Positions 8,781 through 64,000 of a stretch of 64,000 bases of DNA are shown piece by piece. The notes under the pieces were generated by a model. It did no database searches. It was not told the origin of the DNA and saw nothing but the letters and a program-made list of their open reading frames with translations. Both the position numbers and the translations under genes were made by a program. The number at the start of each line of letters is the position of its first letter. Position 1 is the stretch's first letter. The stretch comes from a phage: the NCBI GenBank assembly GCA_012441205.1, contig GCA_012441205.1_4705.1; one strand, 5' to 3'.

Positions 8781-10271
8781 TTATTTTTTACTCGGACGAT
8801 TCAATGCGGGTACCGGGTTCTTTGGTTGCTTTGTCTTTTCATCCATCCAGTACGGGAAGTACTCACCAGTACGCATACGCAATAAGTCCATTGTGGACAG
8901 GAACGGCAGCGGGTTAGGATCGTCCAGATACGTCCAGTAACCACGCGTGTTTAACAATACATCCCAATCGAAACCTTTTGCTTTAAGATCGTCGTACAGT
9001 TCCTGTGGGGTGCAATACAGCTGTGGGTTTTCGTAAACCTCTTGACGCCAGAGATTATGCATTTGACACAGCTCCGACGTAATTTCCAGAGCACGCTGTA
9101 AATACTCATCCTCTTCGCAGAGAGAACGAATGGTCGTACGCTGCAACGCAACATCCGGATAAATATCCAAATATACCGTTGAAGCACCATCAGCTGACTT
9201 ACCACCTGACGCATGCATACCCCAACCACGCATCCAATCTTTATCACGCAGGTAGTGGTATTCCGTTAATGATGGTTTAACCCCTTCGCTCTGACTAACC
9301 ACAATCGGGAACGGTAAGCCGGTGGGTCCGTTTTTAGCGCGCATGTTAAAGACTTGAATCAACTGCAGATCGGTATCCCCGATAAGGTTGTCACCAGGCC
9401 CACGCGGATAAAGGACGCGTTTATCCGCGTTCTGAAGAATCGTCAGTTTATCGATTTTCCAGAGGTTATTCGTATAAAACGTGAAGCGTTCCGGGACGTT
9501 CTTAAACTTCTCATCGCCCTTAAACCCTTTCAGTTTTCGTACCGGTTGCTGTCCCGGCATACCACCAACGTTTACACCGTCACCAAGGTGGGCGGTCATG
9601 GTAATGTAGATACCCGCCGACGCTGTGAGTACTGGCATCTGTGATAGAATCTGGCTTTTCGCAGCTGCTGAACGCATCGCTTCAGCATTCAGTTTTGCGC
9701 CACCCGCGGTTTCTTTATCGAACAGTGCATCAACGGCATCGATTGGTAATCCAGAGAAACTGTCGATGAGTACAACGGTCGGCAACCACCAGGTATAGTT
9801 CTCACCGTGTTTATTAATAAACGGAACGGCTTTGCGTTGAGATTTATCTTTGACCTTGTCGTCACGGAATTTCTTAATCGCATCAAACCAAATGTTACCG
9901 CTCATCTGAACAGCATCGGTGATAAACACACGTTCTTCTTCGAAAAGATCGACACCTGCGATATTAGACATGTTCATCGCAAGCGTTAAGATACGTGTTG
10001 TCGTTAACGACATTTCTGTGTCGTAAACGCTACTATTGCTGTTTGCGTAACGATCGATAACGCGTAACAAGCGAAACATTATGAACGTGGTTTTGTTCAT
10101 GTTGCCGCGAGCGCCTGCGCCCTCAACAAGCATCATGCCGCCGTTACAAATGCTTTCACCGTGTTTACCGACATAGTACCGACCACCAGATGTGGGAATA
10201 TCCATTAAGCAACCAATGTTGAGATTAAAACGCATCTCTTCACCAGGAGAAAGGTACTTATTAAGATTCAT
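8781..10271 (-). CDS. hypothetical 496-aa protein, possible RecA-fold NTPase with atypical P-loop
   Basis: NGGMMLVEGAGARGNMNKTTF resembles RecA GG...hhhhEhxG....KTT, and TVVLIDSFSG resembles Walker B hhhhDS; P-loop is non-canonical. SD AAGGAG upstream. Confidence 0.3.
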   Translation of the reverse strand: MNLNKYLSPGEEMRFNLNIGCLMDIPTSGGRYYVGKHGESICNGGMMLVEGAGARGNMNKTTFIMFRLLRVIDRYANSNSSVYDTEMSLTTTRILTLAMNMSNIAGVDLFEEERVFITDAVQMSGNIWFDAIKKFRDDKVKDKSQRKAVPFINKHGENYTWWLPTVVLIDSFSGLPIDAVDALFDKETAGGAKLNAEAMRSAAAKSQILSQMPVLTASAGIYITMTAHLGDGVNVGGMPGQQPVRKLKGFKGDEKFKNVPERFTFYTNNLWKIDKLTILQNADKRVLYPRGPGDNLIGDTDLQLIQVFNMRAKNGPTGLPFPIVVSQSEGVKPSLTEYHYLRDKDWMRGWGMHASGGKSADGASTVYLDIYPDVALQRTTIRSLCEEDEYLQRALEITSELCQMHNLWRQEVYENPQLYCTPQELYDDLKAKGFDWDVLLNTRGYWTYLDDPNPLPFLSTMDLLRMRTGEYFPYWMDEKTKQPKNPVPALNRPSKK

Positions 10272-59264: not shown

Positions 59265-59363
59265 CTGACTTATGTATCACGGTGCCGGATGAATGTCCGG
59301 TGCAATGAAACCATCCGCAACGTTGTCGTCAAGAATATCATCCAACGAAGCAGCTACGGTAGT

Positions 59364-61586
59364 TCAGTTAGTCTGAACAGGCAGCTTGATGTTTTCAGTG
59401 TAGACCTTACGCAGGTTCACAACGTTAATCAGACCCAGCAGCGGGCAGTTGTTAACGAAGCGGCAGCGCGGCTGAACCATGGTTTCTTTAGAAACCTGAC
59501 CGTTACGGGTAACCTGAGCAACAGATACCAGTTCCGGTACATACAGGAACATACCGAAGGTCAGCGGATCCGGAGAACCCTGGATACCACGAGACAGGGT
59601 CACGAAGATCTTATCGCGCAGCATGACGTTCGGGTTATCTACAACTACGAAGTTGAAGCTTACACCAACGGTACGGAAATCACCATCGGTCTGCAGGAAC
59701 TGCGGGATGTAGTTGTCAGTTGCTACTACGCAACGCGGTTTCTCATCAGCGTTGGAAGACAGCAGCTGCAGAGCTGGCTGATAACCAGACTCGGAGTACA
59801 TGCGGTATGCCATCTCACGAATCACGTTCATGATCGCAGCAGACACTTCAGCACGACGTTCTGCAGTGGTGGTACCCTGAACAGATTTCTCCAGGTCCAG
59901 ATTGATTTCTTCGAACCACGGACGGATCAGGTAACGACCGAAACCTTCGATCTGGATGTCACCGAACTGACGGAAGCGAGAGGTCGCAACCGCTTTCAGT
60001 GCGTCTTTGTAGCTGAACAGTTTCTCAACCATCAGGTTGTCGAAACGTGCGTTAGCAGCTTGGATCAGAACGTCCAGGTCAGCAGCGTTTTCTTCCCAAT
60101 CCAGCGGACGAGGAATGGAGAACGGAGCCAGCAGGCCGATTGCGTAACGTTCTTGCTTCATGTTGAAGTCAAGGTGCTTACCGCGCTCACGACGGTTGCT
60201 GTTGTTACGGCGGATACGCAGTTCGTAACCAACCAGTTTGAAGCTCAGGTCTTCAGCCAGTTGTTTGAACTCTTCGCTCTTACGCGGTTGTTCGATGTTG
60301 TCCTGATCAACCAGGCGATACAGTTCAGCGTTAGCGCCGTTAACACGCAGACCGGCTTTCTCTACGTTGGAAGAACCGTAAACTTCGATCGCCAGCTGAG
60401 CAGCAGATTTCGCATCGATGATGTCCTGCAGCGCTTCAGCTTTCGCGCCTTTAACGTCTTTGGTGTTCTCATCAACGAAGATGGAGTGGGTGTCGAACGC
60501 CAGGGTCATTTTGCGGAAGTCGCCTTCCAGGGATTTCTGGAAACCGTTGGTGATCAGACCAGATACGTCGAACGGTACGTAAGAGGTTTTGCTGTGCTTG
60601 GTAGATTTGATTTCCACCAGGATTTTGGTCAGCGTGATCTGGGCGTCCAGCGCGTCGGTGTTGTCGCTGTAACCGTTAGCCAGGATGCTATCGTCTTCAG
60701 CAATACCGATCATGTCGATCAGTTTATCAACAGCCAGGTAAGACGTTTTGTAAGTTACGCCTTTAATTTCGATGTCGCGCGGAGCAACGATAGCTTTGTC
60801 AACGAAGTACTGTGCGTTAGCATCGTCAGCACGATAGATCGGATGCAGATCGGTCACGTCGTTGGACAGAACGTCGTTGTACATGAACGCATCCAGCAGC
60901 GGACGACGTACCCAATCAGCCGGAGTACCGTCAGCGTTACGACGCAGGTGGTTGAACACCAGCGGACGACGGAAAGATACGTCGTAACCGATCTGGTTCG
61001 GAGCCAGAACGATGGTGTTGTACAGTTCGTTACCCATGCGGCTCAGACGAGAAGCCTTCACGTTGAACACAACGGAGTACGGCATCATGTCACGCAGTTC
61101 TTTCTGGTCGTAGGACAGCTGAACCAGTTCTTCAGATTCGCAACCGCAGGAATCAGCAGCCATCATGACGAAGTTAGAGCTGTCAACTTCACGGCCAGAC
61201 GGAGTGGTGCTGATGTTCATGGAACGTGCTTGTTTAGCATATTCTACCGGGTTACCATGAGCCAGCATGATCAGTGCTGCTGCACGAGCCTGCTGTGCGT
61301 TCATGGTGAACAGCTGTTCTTCAATACGCTGCTTCTCTTCCGGAGTGGTGGTTTCGAAGCCCAGCATGGACAGAACCGGTTCTTCGGCTTTACGGATGTC
61401 GCTGCTGAAGCTCTTAACATCCATTTCGTTAACCAGTTTGTCCATGGATTTGAAATCAACCTTAGAAGCAGATTCCATAGACAGGAAGGTGTTCTCCAGA
61501 CCTTTGTCTGCTGGTTTGCTACCATTAGCGGTCAGGAACTGGCGAGTGGCCGCGACCTGTTGGCTAAGAAGGGTTTTATCATTCAT
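59364..61586 (-). CDS. highly expressed 740-aa virion protein; candidate major capsid protein of a jumbo phage (tail sheath not excluded)
   Basis: Strongest codon-usage bias in the window; size matches phiKZ-type capsid proteins (~740-750 aa, from memory). The antisense 766-aa ORF on + strand is a shadow ORF. Confidence 0.45.
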   Translation of the reverse strand: MNDKTLLSQQVAATRQFLTANGSKPADKGLENTFLSMESASKVDFKSMDKLVNEMDVKSFSSDIRKAEEPVLSMLGFETTTPEEKQRIEEQLFTMNAQQARAAALIMLAHGNPVEYAKQARSMNISTTPSGREVDSSNFVMMAADSCGCESEELVQLSYDQKELRDMMPYSVVFNVKASRLSRMGNELYNTIVLAPNQIGYDVSFRRPLVFNHLRRNADGTPADWVRRPLLDAFMYNDVLSNDVTDLHPIYRADDANAQYFVDKAIVAPRDIEIKGVTYKTSYLAVDKLIDMIGIAEDDSILANGYSDNTDALDAQITLTKILVEIKSTKHSKTSYVPFDVSGLITNGFQKSLEGDFRKMTLAFDTHSIFVDENTKDVKGAKAEALQDIIDAKSAAQLAIEVYGSSNVEKAGLRVNGANAELYRLVDQDNIEQPRKSEEFKQLAEDLSFKLVGYELRIRRNNSNRRERGKHLDFNMKQERYAIGLLAPFSIPRPLDWEENAADLDVLIQAANARFDNLMVEKLFSYKDALKAVATSRFRQFGDIQIEGFGRYLIRPWFEEINLDLEKSVQGTTTAERRAEVSAAIMNVIREMAYRMYSESGYQPALQLLSSNADEKPRCVVATDNYIPQFLQTDGDFRTVGVSFNFVVVDNPNVMLRDKIFVTLSRGIQGSPDPLTFGMFLYVPELVSVAQVTRNGQVSKETMVQPRCRFVNNCPLLGLINVVNLRKVYTENIKLPVQTN

Positions 61587-61735
61587 TGAAAGTATCCTTT
61601 ACAGAATTAACTTATATAAGTCGGTCGATAGACCATAGCGTACACGCGTGCATGCGCCACTATAGTATCAGTAAACACTTACCGTTATTGAGGTCGTGAT
61701 ACAACACTAAAAATGCCGCATAACTTTTCCCTACG

Positions 61736-62356
61736 TCACAAACGACGCAGGCGATAATGGATGGAACGATTGGTGCAATATGAACGGAACAGCGGCAATT
61801 GCGCAACTTCCGCAAGACTCATATTAATTCGCAGGTGTTCAATAACGGCGCTGTAGTTATCAGCAATACGATCGCTCAATAACTCTTCTGCCAATAAAGG
61901 AAGACAATCGACAACAATCGCGATCACATCCTCATTAACATAACGCACCCGAACACTCAACGGACGTTTGTCTGGGCTGTAAGTTGGATCCGCCAAACGA
62001 CGTTCAATATCACGCGGATAGCTCGTCAGTAAATGGTAATAACCATTGTCATAACGATTGATGTACTCACACAGCACATCAACATTCTTCTCTGGCGGCA
62101 AACCTGTTTCGTCATAGTGATACGCAAACATACCACCAAGCAGGTTGTTAAGATGAACCGCAGGGTTCGCTTGTTCGTGTTCTTTCGTGATGAAGAAAGG
62201 CACGTTCTGGGCTGCGAAATAAAAACCTACATCATTGGGCGATAGTATGCCGAAAAGACTTTTAGGGTCTAATAACACCTGTAAGTCATCACGCGCATTT
62301 CGAATAATCGCGTGTTCTACCCAATTCGGAACGACGAGATATCGGAGTTCCTTCAT
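61736..62356 (-). CDS. hypothetical protein
   Basis: 206-aa ORF upstream (minus strand) of the 740-aa gene. Confidence 0.55.
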   Translation of the reverse strand: MKELRYLVVPNWVEHAIIRNARDDLQVLLDPKSLFGILSPNDVGFYFAAQNVPFFITKEHEQANPAVHLNNLLGGMFAYHYDETGLPPEKNVDVLCEYINRYDNGYYHLLTSYPRDIERRLADPTYSPDKRPLSVRVRYVNEDVIAIVVDCLPLLAEELLSDRIADNYSAVIEHLRINMSLAEVAQLPLFRSYCTNRSIHYRLRRL

Positions 62357-62395
62357 TATGATTACCTCTTTGCAAGTATCGAAAGGATTGAGTCG

Positions 62396-64000
62396 ATGGA
62401 CCCAAAACAGATAGCCATTAAGATTATTACGTTACTGTTTCGTAATGCACAATTGAACCATCCCGATCCCAGTACGATCGAACATGTTAAATCCGTCTTA
62501 GATAAAGTCGAACCCCCGAAAAACCATCTCGCTACAGACGTAGATAGAGAGGTTTTCAACAACCTGATGAATACCATTCATTGGATGTTGGAACAACCAT
62601 TATCGGAACCTTTCGATAAACAACAGTTGTTACAAAGGATACGTTTGGATTGCCTTGAACAAAGCAATCTTTACGAGATTCTTGCCGACGGACTGTACGA
62701 TATCGAAGACGACGCTCATATCAGTAAGGTCTGTTCACTCTATTACAACGAATTACGTAATCTGATTACCCGTCGTCGTGTTTTCGAAACCTTTAGAAAC
62801 ACGTACATGGATATCAGTAACGGGCGACTTGGGGATAAAGAATTTTTCGATGCAATGGCGAATCTGAAATTATCGCTAGACAGTATCGAAATGGATACCG
62901 AAAATCCCGAAGAGATGTCGTGTATGATTGACGGCTTTATCGCTGACAGCGAAGACGATATCGAGAAAGTCGAACGTATGTTCGTCAAAGCGATGGAACG
63001 TAACAGTCCTGAAGGTGGATTTGTAACCGGCTGGCAAGGCTTTAATAAAATGTTGGGGTCGGTCGGTGTTTTACGTCGCGGTACCTTAGGACTGATTGGT
63101 GCAATGCAGCACCGGAACAAGTCAGGCGTGTTGTTAAAACTGTTCACACATCTGGCATTGTACAACAAACCCCATTTCTTTTTCCCGGAGCGAGCAAAGA
63201 AAGCATTACTGATTCATTTGTCGACAGAAAACGAAGTGGAAGAAAACACGCTTCAGATATACAAGAACATGCGAGAACAGGAAACAGGCGAATATGTCGA
63301 TATTCGTAAGATTGACCCTCGCGAGGCATCACGTTATGTGTTGAAGGTGTTCAACGATGCGGGTTTCTCTGTTTGTATGCGTCGTGTTGATGGGATGAGT
63401 TATAAACAACTCGCTAATCTCATCGACCATTTCGAACGCATGGGTTATGAAGTCATGGCGTTGTTCATTGACTATCTGAAAATGTTCTCATCGGAAGGGC
63501 TGGATAGAAATGGACCGACCGGCGCATGGCTCCAAGAACTCTTCAACAAAGTCCGTAACCTCTGCAGTGTTAAACGTATTTTAGGCATGACCGTACACCA
63601 GCTGTCATCCGATGCGAAGATGCGTGCACGTGATGGCAACGATGAAGAGTTTGTTGACCAAGTCGCAGGTTTAAGTTACTGGGATGGTTGTAAAGGGATT
63701 GACCGTGAGATTGACCTTGAAGTGATTGTTGATATCGTTAAGGAACCGGGCAAACGTCAAAGCTGGCAAGTCTTTGCATTAGGGAAAGACCGTCAACCGG
63801 ATAACGGTTCAACGAAACCTGAAGACAAACACTTCGCAATGCCATTCCAAACCATCGGGATGCTTCCTGATGATTACGGTAAGAAAGCAGTGTATTGCCG
63901 CAAGGTTGGCGGACAACCTGTCTCCGAGGGAGGTAAAGGTCCGTGGAACAAGTTCGATGAAAACGCAGCACCGAGTAATGAATTACAATTTGATTTAGAA
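62396..64000 (+). CDS. DnaB/SF4-like helicase candidate, 3'-truncated by window edge (not in ORF track)
   Basis: ATG at 62396 (AAAGGA 8 nt upstream) opens a frame with no stop to nt 64000 (535 codons, my own translation). GFVTGWQGFNKMLGSVGVLRRGTLGLIGAMQHRNKSG, LFIDYLKMF and HQLSSD resemble DnaB H1/H2/H3, but the P-loop is atypical. Confidence 0.45.
   Translation, partial: MDPKQIAIKIITLLFRNAQLNHPDPSTIEHVKSVLDKVEPPKNHLATDVDREVFNNLMNTIHWMLEQPLSEPFDKQQLLQRIRLDCLEQSNLYEILADGLYDIEDDAHISKVCSLYYNELRNLITRRRVFETFRNTYMDISNGRLGDKEFFDAMANLKLSLDSIEMDTENPEEMSCMIDGFIADSEDDIEKVERMFVKAMERNSPEGGFVTGWQGFNKMLGSVGVLRRGTLGLIGAMQHRNKSGVLLKLFTHLALYNKPHFFFPERAKKALLIHLSTENEVEENTLQIYKNMREQETGEYVDIRKIDPREASRYVLKVFNDAGFSVCMRRVDGMSYKQLANLIDHFERMGYEVMALFIDYLKMFSSEGLDRNGPTGAWLQELFNKVRNLCSVKRILGMTVHQLSSDAKMRARDGNDEEFVDQVAGLSYWDGCKGIDREIDLEVIVDIVKEPGKRQSWQVFALGKDRQPDNGSTKPEDKHFAMPFQTIGMLPDDYGKKAVYCRKVGGQPVSEGGKGPWNKFDENAAPSNELQFDLE

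Follow-up and report, generated by a model that had tools for sequence, protein, structure and literature searches.

The right edge of a stretch of phage DNA of 64,000 nucleotides (assembly GCA_012441205.1; the whole stretch is called the window here) raises two questions: what is encoded there, and what an unusual ATP-binding loop in the encoded protein means. Translation of the window shows that the plus strand is open from 62396 to 64000, with zero stops in 535 codons. The frame starts at an ATG (62396-62398) preceded by a Shine-Dalgarno-like sequence, and the nearest in-frame stop lies 37 codons upstream. Such an SD-preceded frame had been claimed in the initial annotation, and it holds; an in-frame stop, which would speak against a gene, was looked for and none occurs in the 535 codons. 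The ORF had also been called unlisted and said to run off the right edge. It is indeed missing from the ORF list of the window, which shows short minus-strand ORFs only at this locus because it omits ORFs that run off the window end, but it is annotated in RefSeq for Escherichia phage Goslar, to which the window is 98.3% identical at the nucleotide level. The end of the ORF does lie beyond the window, with the correction that the last codon and the stop alone are missing: in comparison with Goslar gp043 (YP_009820728.1, 536 aa), 535 of 536 codons are present, and the final Phe codon and the stop fall outside. RefSeq names gp043 'DnaB-like replicative helicase', and the window protein is 99.6% identical to it over all 535 residues (tblastn).

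Table 1. Features of the right-edge helicase gene and of the recombinase gene, in window coordinates.
Feature	Position	Strand	Basis or remark
Shine-Dalgarno-like AAGGA	62383..62387	+	8 nt upstream of the helicase start codon; read from the sequence
CDS, divergent DnaB-like replicative helicase (Goslar gp043 orthologue)	62396..64000	+	Open frame, Goslar identity, RefSeq, PF20307, PHROG 3213
N-terminal all-helical domain and linker, ~residues 1-203	62396..63004	+	AF2 helical over residues 3-203; Foldseek alignments include the region
C-terminal RecA-fold ATPase domain, ~residues 205-513	63008..63934	+	PF20307; AF2 alternating strands and helices; profile alignment to Aquifex DnaB 4nmn
Walker A / H1 P-loop GAMQHRNKSG, residues 235-244	63098..63127	+	Aligned on ARPGMGKT of DnaB
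N241, codon AAC	63116..63118	+	
H1a catalytic glutamate E278 (STENE, ~ DnaB SLEM)	63227..63229	+	170/170; aligned with SLEMS of 4nmn
Walker B / H2 D359-Y360 (FIDYLKM, ~ DnaB VDYLQL)	63470..63475	+	D 170/170, Y 169/170; aligned with DYLQL of 4nmn and 2vye
H3 glutamine Q402 (HQLSS, ~ DnaB AQLSR)	63599..63601	+	167/170; aligned with QLS of 4nmn and 2vye
K464-D-R466 basic pair after strand 456-465	63785..63793	+	K 166/170, R 165/170
Disordered acidic, aromatic C-terminal tail, residues 514-535, ...NELQFDLE[F]	63935..64000	+	pLDDT <50
CDS, UvsX/RecA-like recombinase, 496 aa and stop	8781..10271	-	PHROG 97, AF2, Foldseek
Recombinase Walker A GARGNMNKTT, residues 53-62	10086..10115	-	
Recombinase N59, codon AAC	10095..10097	-	

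Profile searches place the right-edge protein in a described family. It matches Pfam PF20307, 'Divergent DnaB-like ATPase' (divDNAB), with E=1.4e-120 and 402.7 bits against a gathering cut-off of 26 bits, and the match spans residues 151-513 and profile positions 3-355 of 356. Likewise, it matches PHROG 3213 over its full length (E=1.2e-122) and the canonical DnaB-like PHROG 19 at E=3.5e-11. The Pfam model DnaB_C (PF03796) does not match the window helicase even at E<=1; precomputed PF03796 matches are found in three of its relatives (P0004, P0013 and P0019). Judged from these sequence comparisons, homology to DnaB is clear, though the protein lies outside the PF03796 model. NCBIfam, searched with this helicase and with the recombinase described below, returned no model for either.

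The helicase family numbers 1603 representatives at E<=1e-3. Searches of phage records by tblastn found it in 282, all of them phiKZ-like jumbo phages, at 284 places, nearly always one to a record; in these records it is the sole DnaB-like protein matched per phage genome. Its gene adjoins the major head protein gene, an arrangement shared with the PF20307/PHROG 3213 relatives. When inteins and homing-endonuclease domains were sought in oversized family members, the inserts gave no Pfam match. Iyer et al. (2021, PMC7824862) describe a divergent DnaB as typical of group 1 jumbo phages; they noted its modified nucleotide-binding motif and took the enzyme to be catalytically active. Prichard et al. 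(2023, PMC10299810) list the replicative helicase among the core genes of chimalliviruses and place RAY gp315 in the phage nucleus. The gene, its family and the deviation of its loop are thus already known. The window helicase is a direct member of the group formed by Goslar gp043, RAY gp315, Ea35-70 and the phiKZ-group orthologues, with the same domain order and motif set, and nothing of substance sets it apart from them beyond a minority Asn where most have Tyr or Phe and a slightly longer C-terminal tail. Searches of the literature turned up no biochemical or structural study of this chimallivirus helicase family, and the text and supplements of the phiKZ TnSeq paper do not mention the helicase by name.

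Structure prediction points the same way. The AF2 model of the helicase has an overall pLDDT of 78.6, dropping below 50 at residues 514-535. Foldseek with this model retrieved full-length DnaB of V. cholerae, G. stearothermophilus and E. coli together with T4 gp41, at E values of 4e-15 to 1e-12 and in alignments of ~500-520 columns that include the N-terminal region. Model and matches together reveal the two-tier architecture of a helical N-terminal domain, a linker helix and a RecA-fold C-terminal domain, and the N-terminal domain is the predicted counterpart of that of DnaB. The proposal of a DnaB-like (SF4) helicase was therefore well founded, being borne out by PF20307 (1.4e-120), PHROG 3213, PHROG 19 and the Foldseek matches to full-length DnaB and gp41 (E~4e-15). 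Profile similarity to SF4 helicases is present as well, for the family profile reaches solved DnaB chains. These structures were reached via the family profile because single-sequence phmmer against the PDB was uninformative, giving nothing meaningful for the helicase or the recombinase. Against T4 gp41 as a single sequence hhalign found no significant similarity (E=0.25), although it set the two P-loops together.

With canonical DnaB and T4 gp41 (PDB 4esv, 6t66, 4nmn, 8gao) the helicase shares the two-tier plan and the H1a SxE, DYL and QLS motifs, and it has a basic pair that resembles their K-x-R. It differs from them in an identity of 12-15% only, in the missing PF03796 match at E<=1, in a longer N-terminal region and in an added acidic, aromatic C-terminal tail. 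This tail is a family trait: 160 of 170 representatives have F, W or Y within the last 8 residues, and the last 14 are net acidic in 159 of 170. T7 gp4, an SF4 ring helicase, carries a primase domain in the same chain and has GSGMGKS as a canonical P-loop; its acidic C-terminal tail, with Phe as the last residue, tethers the DNA polymerase. The window helicase resembles gp4 in its acidic tail with a terminal Phe and, unlike gp4, has no primase domain. We regard the tail as a possible candidate for a partner-docking peptide.

Motif conservation was counted over the same 170 family representatives. The H1a, H2 and H3 blocks read in the ORF are real and conserved across this set. The basic K464-D-R466, which follows the penultimate strand and lies beyond the profile-to-PDB alignment that ends at H3, is a candidate for the arginine finger (R466) or H4-region residues, from its position and its likeness to the K-x-R of DnaB. 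The atypical Walker A stands too. N241 stands where the canonical loop has its second glycine, and K242 and S243 are kept: the family profile ALqhnfKtG aligns on ARPGMGKTA of Aquifex DnaB, and K242 and S243 align on the GKT of DnaB 4nmn and 2vye. Expressed as consensus, the family reads A-[LM]-Q-H-x-[YFN]-K-[ST]-G against A-R-P-x-x-G-K-T in DnaB, with the second glycine lost.

The second P-loop glycine is among the most conserved residues of P-loop NTPases, and all canonical DnaB-family proteins in the comparison (Aquifex DnaB, Geobacillus DnaB and T4 gp41) have it. In the divergent family it is lost in ~98% of representatives and kept in 4 of 170; the Walker A Lys and the following Ser/Thr are each present in 170 of 170. 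The residue before the Lys is Y in 72, F in 63, N in 17, W in 7, G in 4, H in 4 and another residue in 3, so that it is aromatic in 84% of the family. On a tree of the 170 sequences this site has undergone at least 54 inferred changes among F, Y, W, N, H, G, C, S and D, with N arising in 14 separate clades. By this distribution, Asn is a recurrent minority state at a labile P-loop site.

A second protein of the window had been noted for a similarly odd loop, GARGNMNKTT, and for a RecA-like fold. Motif and fold are both present, with the strand corrected to minus: read on the plus strand, 8781-10271 contains 17 stops, and a plus-strand gene was rejected. The protein matches PHROG 97, 'UvsX-like recombinase', at E=1.8e-32, and no Pfam model was found for it. 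Its AF2 model (pLDDT 87.7) matches RecA/Rad51 filaments in Foldseek at E~1e-10, with target-normalised TM up to 0.74. Alignment to T4 UvsX reaches E=0.0028 over the Walker A region and places GRGNtfKS on GPSKSFKS (hhalign). The P-loop of T4 UvsX, the recombinase that we take to be PDB entry 3IO5, is GPSKSFKS in NC_000866, with Phe before the Lys. Likewise, the recombinase of the phiKZ-like phage HUST_1 has the F-type loop SRPNNFKT. Among 121 recombinase homologues the residue before the Lys is F in 75, Y in 30, G in 11, N in 4 and H in 1; the Lys itself (K60) is found in 121 of 121, the Gly is lost in ~91%, and the N state is limited to the Goslar clade. Among the relatives of this protein there is precedent for activity when the second Gly is missing. 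T4 UvsX is an ssDNA-dependent ATPase that hydrolyses ATP to both ADP and AMP (PMC3016280), and Nlp1/gp152, the F-type UvsX homologue of phiKZ, is functional in vivo (PMC12676376).

The initial annotation had suggested that NK[ST] may be a conserved, lineage-specific P-loop variant common to both proteins. As a conserved variant it fails, since in helicase and recombinase families alike an aromatic residue (F/Y) normally precedes the Lys and N is in the minority; NK[ST] is not a motif because the replacement site is labile. As a trait common to both proteins it fails as well. If the shared Asn were a functionally coupled adaptation of the Goslar lineage, for instance to a cofactor, nucleotide pool or host factor that both proteins use, the two states should travel together, and at first sight they do: both window proteins use the codon AAC at the homologous P-loop position, the window, Goslar and two more IMG/VR contigs each hold an N/N pair of helicase and recombinase, and relatives of each protein at 71-74% identity also carry N, though these are not paired by genome. 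We paired the genes by contig, taking the best 80 IMG/VR loci of each; this gave 19 shared contigs, none from the second N-type helicase clade, for which six GenBank genomes were added. N/N pairs proved to be confined to the Goslar clade. The second N-type clade, represented by Agricanvirus Desertfox and by SA002, combines N-type helicases with F-type recombinases, and the other pairs (Y/F, F/F, C/F, G/Q, F/G six times and Y/G) likewise speak for independence. Furthermore, N has many separate origins in the helicase family, and the change from Tyr to Asn is a single nucleotide step. Close paralogy of the two proteins, which could explain a shared Asn, was rejected: hhalign gave E=0.43 and aligned the Walker B region alone. 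Across the genomes paired, the data show that the two pre-Lys states are uncoupled. The coupled reading is largely refuted by these pairings already, and we hold it to be very improbable.

We consider it very probable that the ORF encodes the active, ring-forming SF4 replicative helicase of a Goslar-like nucleus-forming jumbo phage, with a P-loop that is a tolerated variant. Homology, fold, motif conservation, variability of the site and lack of coupling, as observed here, form the basis of this reading; hexamer formation, polarity, activity and a replisome role would follow by analogy. The phage belongs to the phiKZ-like group, Chimalliviridae, and its helicase to the 'divergent DnaB' family PF20307. 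By analogy with DnaB and gp41, the protein would work inside the phage nucleus as a hexamer on single-stranded DNA; NTP hydrolysis at the subunit interfaces would drive translocation and unwinding in front of the divergent family-B polymerase of the phage. In the P-loop, the Lys that binds phosphate and the Ser/Thr that binds Mg are kept, but the second glycine of GxxxxGK[ST] is replaced across the family, as a rule by Tyr or Phe and in the window by Asn. The site probably drifts freely, through residues most of which lie a single nucleotide step from a Tyr codon, and Asn would therefore carry no special meaning. Its presence in the recombinase too would be a coincidence of the Goslar clade, on top of a tendency towards non-glycine residues shared by both families and T4 UvsX.

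Might the altered loop instead betray a degenerate DnaB-like scaffold or loader that has lost NTP hydrolysis? The departure from GxxxxGK[ST] at a glycine that hardly ever varies elsewhere and the failure of DnaB_C to match at Pfam thresholds would suit such a protein, but the conservation of the catalytic residues does not. We argue for an active enzyme because K242, S/T243, E278 and D359 are each found in 170 of 170 divergent representatives, Q402 in 167, and K464 and R466 of the K-x-R pair, with R466 as the candidate arginine finger, in 166 and 165. A dead helicase would, besides, leave these phages with no other matched DnaB-like protein per genome (282 records, 284 places), and activity was also the conclusion of Iyer et al. 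(PMC7824862). T4 UvsX is catalytic despite the same substitution. This RecA-superfamily ATPase, with its aromatic residue before the Lys, is a relative of the window recombinase (PHROG 97); being a filament-forming recombinase and not a ring helicase, it offers the helicase a P-loop precedent only, one that is compatible with catalysis after loss of the second glycine. A dead enzyme is thus most unlikely. Loss of the glycine may nevertheless bring some change in nucleotide handling. A stronger version of this idea, in which a bulky or polar residue alters the NTP/dNTP choice or the products of helicase and recombinase, draws on the extent of the loss (~98% of 170 helicases, ~91% of 121 recombinases), on the production of ADP and AMP by T4 UvsX with its GPSKSFKS loop (PMC3016280), and on the 84% aromatic residues in the helicase family, which suggest some selection and not pure neutrality. 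A site that has changed at least 54 times is, however, a poor fit to a finely tuned specificity determinant, and the text of PMC3016280 does not tie the formation of AMP to the Phe of UvsX. We consider this version unlikely, and tolerance of the variant P-loop the better account.

The sequences compared suggest that throughout the phiKZ-like lineage both RecA-superfamily DNA motors have lost the second P-loop glycine, most often to an aromatic residue; T4 UvsX, with the same substitution, is unusual in hydrolysing ATP to AMP besides ADP. It is an unlikely, speculative extension that the variant loop gives the replisome and recombination machinery of chimalliviruses a distinct nucleotide handling suited to the enclosed phage nucleus. 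If true, these motors might prefer other NTPs or dNTPs, carry hydrolysis through to NMP or resist a host defence based on nucleotides, and the Asn found in the Goslar clade would be one of the functional flavours of the variant P-loop. As it stands, the value of the locus lies mostly in its correct annotation as the core replicative helicase of nucleus-forming jumbo phages, from a family already in Pfam and in Iyer et al. 2021. To this we add the extent of the second-glycine loss (kept in 4 of 170) and the lability of the replacement site, together with the same deviation in the UvsX-like recombinase and T4 UvsX and the finding that the states of the two window proteins are uncoupled. The helicase is a reasonable target for reconstitution of the chimallivirus replisome.

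An open DnaB-like frame at the right edge of the window had been reported by the initial annotation, and translation confirms that observation: the frame runs for 535 sense codons with zero stops from an ATG preceded by a Shine-Dalgarno-like motif, and its closest upstream in-frame stop lies 37 codons back. The ORF had been called unlisted. It is indeed absent from the ORF list, which has nothing but short minus-strand ORFs for this interval, but this is a reporting artefact, because the list leaves out ORFs that run off the source end.

Features of the window discussed in the text
Feature	Coordinates	Strand	Details
UvsX-like recombinase CDS	8781-10271	-	clean 496-aa reading; GARGNMNKTT at residues 53-62
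766-codon ORF	59289-61589	+	antisense to the major head protein gene
Major head protein gene (Goslar gp041)	59364-61586	-	740 codons
Shine-Dalgarno-like AAGGA	62383-62387	+	8 nt upstream of the ATG
Helicase ORF	62396-64000	+	ATG at 62396
Walker A GAMQHRNKSG	63098-63127	+	helicase residues 235-244
Helicase C-terminal tail	63935-64000	+	helicase residues 514-535; pLDDT<50; acidic, aromatic; ...NELQFDLE, then F in Goslar

The last 4 kb of the window (60000-64000) share 98.3% nucleotide identity with Escherichia phage vB_EcoM_Goslar, a nucleus-forming jumbo phage. Its counterpart of the edge ORF in RefSeq NC_048170 is gp043 (536 aa, annotated 'DnaB-like replicative helicase'), which adjoins a small hypothetical gene and the major head protein gene. 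The Goslar protein ends in ...FDLEF*, the window version being short by just the final codon and the stop. Both the helicase and the recombinase of the window match with 100% protein identity the metagenomic viral contig IMGVR_UViG_3300045988_173921 (IMG/VR; 182,865 bp), which is probably the same phage. Thus, the window phage is a Goslar-like variant and not Goslar itself. Remoter members of the Goslar clade (71-74% protein identity) were found in metagenomes only. A 766-codon plus-strand ORF, nearly coextensive with the major head protein gene, is probably not a real gene but a mirror frame, poor in stops, of a highly expressed one.

Several searches assign the edge ORF to the DnaB family. 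It matches PF20307 'Divergent DnaB-like ATPase' over residues 151-513 (402.7 bits against a cut-off of 26, E=1.4e-120), PHROG 3213 end to end (E=1.2e-122) and the canonical DnaB-like PHROG 19 (E=3.5e-11), while Pfam DnaB_C gave no match even at E<=1 and NCBIfam none. In an AlphaFold2 model (pLDDT 78.6) the N-terminal region is helical (residues 3-203), strands and helices alternate in the core, and residues 514-535 form a disordered tail. The top Foldseek matches of this model in the PDB are exclusively full-length DnaB-family helicases, from V. cholerae (9dls/6t66), G. stearothermophilus (4esv/2r6a), T4 (gp41, 8gao/8dtp) and E. coli (7t20), at E values of 4e-15 to 1e-12 over ~500-520 columns; the modest TM-scores (~0.45) are as would be expected if the relative angle of the two domains differs in the monomer model. 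An exhaustive profile search recovers 1603 cluster representatives at E<=1e-3 and 655 at E<=1e-30. By tblastn the gene is present in 282 phage records of GenBank, every one a phiKZ-like jumbo phage, essentially in single copy and usually annotated already as a DnaB-like helicase. Some members are oversized: in P0265 (634 aa) and P0279 (562 aa) an insertion, in which Pfam recognised no domain, interrupts the PF20307 match near profile position 113, just past the P-loop helix; P0156 (639 aa) carries a C-terminal extension of ~130 aa; and in PhiPA3 (NC_028999.1) the gene is matched at two separate places around 118348-119502. Insertions, introns or homing elements in the helicase gene may account for these anomalies.

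The atypical Walker A and the DnaB-like H1a, H2 and H3 blocks that had been read in the ORF were borne out by searching a profile of 22 family members against PDB sequences. The profile segment lrrGelvvigALqhnfKtGf aligns to FHPGDLIILAARPGMGKTAF of Aquifex DnaB (4nmn), placing N241 at the second Walker A glycine position; likewise, slEne, iDYLkml and HQLSseA align to SLEMS, VDYLQLL and AQLSREV of solved DnaB. Across 170 aligned representatives, K242, S/T243, E278 (H1a) and D359 (Walker B) are each present in 170/170, and Y360 in 169, Q402 (H3) in 167, K464 in 166, R466 in 165 and G244 in 154. Residue 241 is Y in 72, F in 63, N in 17, W in 7, G and H in 4 each, and S, D and C in one each. Loss of the second P-loop glycine is therefore family-wide: the glycine is kept in ~2%, most representatives have an aromatic instead, and Asn accounts for a minority of 10%. 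A neighbour-joining tree of these sequences requires at least 54 changes at the site and places Asn in 14 separate maximal clades; the closest neighbours of the window helicase outside the Goslar clade are all F-type. Since Y, F, N, H, S, D and C, all seen at site 241, are each within one nucleotide of a Tyr codon, the pattern fits a weakly constrained site at which aromatics are preferred. Iyer et al. (PMC7824862, section 3.4.1) name the modified motif of divergent DnaB 'Walker B'. This appears to be a slip for Walker A: in the sequences it is Walker A, the ATP-binding motif, that departs from the norm, whereas Walker B (hhhhDYL) is invariant and keeps its canonical form. If Walker A was meant, a published description of the atypical P-loop already exists. 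The gene, its family and its modified nucleotide-binding motif are already known.

The second protein with an odd P-loop had been described as RecA-fold-like; motif and fold are present, and the gene lies on the minus strand, since the plus-strand frame contains 17 stops. It matches PHROG 97 'UvsX-like recombinase' (E=1.8e-32), and its confident model (pLDDT 87.7) matches RecA and Rad51 filament structures (E~1e-10, TM up to 0.74 on the target). The family, for which Pfam and NCBIfam hold no model, is single-copy, with 809 homologues at E<=1e-5 and 288 phage records, and includes phiKZ Nlp1/gp152. Walker A in 121 homologues reads G-[IV]-G-G-R-G-N-[TM]-x-K-[ST], x being F in 75, Y in 30, G in 11, N in 4 and H in one; the four N-type proteins are those of the window and its close relatives.

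The initial annotation had the family and the deviant P-loop right, but its proposal that NK[ST] is a conserved variant common to both proteins fails. The two families show no close paralogy by hhalign (E=0.43, with Walker B alone aligned). Pairing the pre-lysine residues by genome (helicase/recombinase) gave N/N in three Goslar-clade contigs, N/F in Erwinia phage Desertfox (Agricanvirus) and Salmonella phage SA002, Y/F in phiKZ-like HUST_1, F/F in Moabite, C/F in Asesino and G/Q in VP4B; IMG/VR contigs shared among the best 80 loci of each gene are F/G (6), F/F (2), F/Y, Y/F and Y/G. The RAY helicase is likewise N-type (locus L071). An N-type helicase thus does not predict an N-type recombinase, and the N/N state is a particularity of the Goslar clade, most simply explained by two independent single-nucleotide Tyr-to-Asn changes.

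A literature search found no biochemical or structural work on the divergent DnaB-like family, and we infer a ring and unwinding from its homology to DnaB and gp41. The helicase would form a hexameric ring on ssDNA, with NTP sites at subunit interfaces comprising K242/S243 (P-loop), E278, D359 and Q402, and K464/R466 as a putative trans-acting basic pair. Within the chimallin shell, the translocating ring would unwind DNA in front of the divergent family-B polymerase of the phage. In phage RAY the orthologue, gp315, is found in the phage nucleus (PMC10299810). Among the 170 representatives, 160 have F, W or Y within the last 8 residues and 159 are net acidic over the last 14, often with PFW(D/E)F. 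In T7 gp4 an acidic, Phe-terminated tail tethers the polymerase. The helicase tail is also acidic with aromatics, ending in F in Goslar, and because of this resemblance it may be a partner-docking peptide.

T4 offers a precedent for the variant loop. Like the jumbo-phage recombinase, T4 UvsX has a non-glycine before the Walker A lysine (GPSKSFKS, NC_000866), onto which hhalign places the family's GRGNtfKS (E=0.0028), whereas T4 gp41, unlike UvsX and the jumbo-phage helicase, keeps a canonical GVNVGKS. It is improbable that these motors handle nucleotides differently because they lack the second glycine, the one argument for this being the analogy with T4 UvsX. UvsX itself has been studied in depth and is active as an ssDNA-dependent ATPase (PMC3016280); the phiKZ homologue Nlp1/gp152 is imported into the phage nucleus, confers fitness and is required to survive the CBASS NucC nuclease (2025 TnSeq preprint, PMC12676376); and the recombinase P-loop of a phiKZ-like genome reads SRPNNFKT. 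A non-glycine at the position is therefore compatible with function. Eleven of the 121 recombinases, paired with F-type helicases in 6 contigs, form a GRGNMGKS subgroup with the canonical glycine, which may be a reversion to, or retention of, the canonical P-loop and could serve as a natural control in functional studies of the variant loop.
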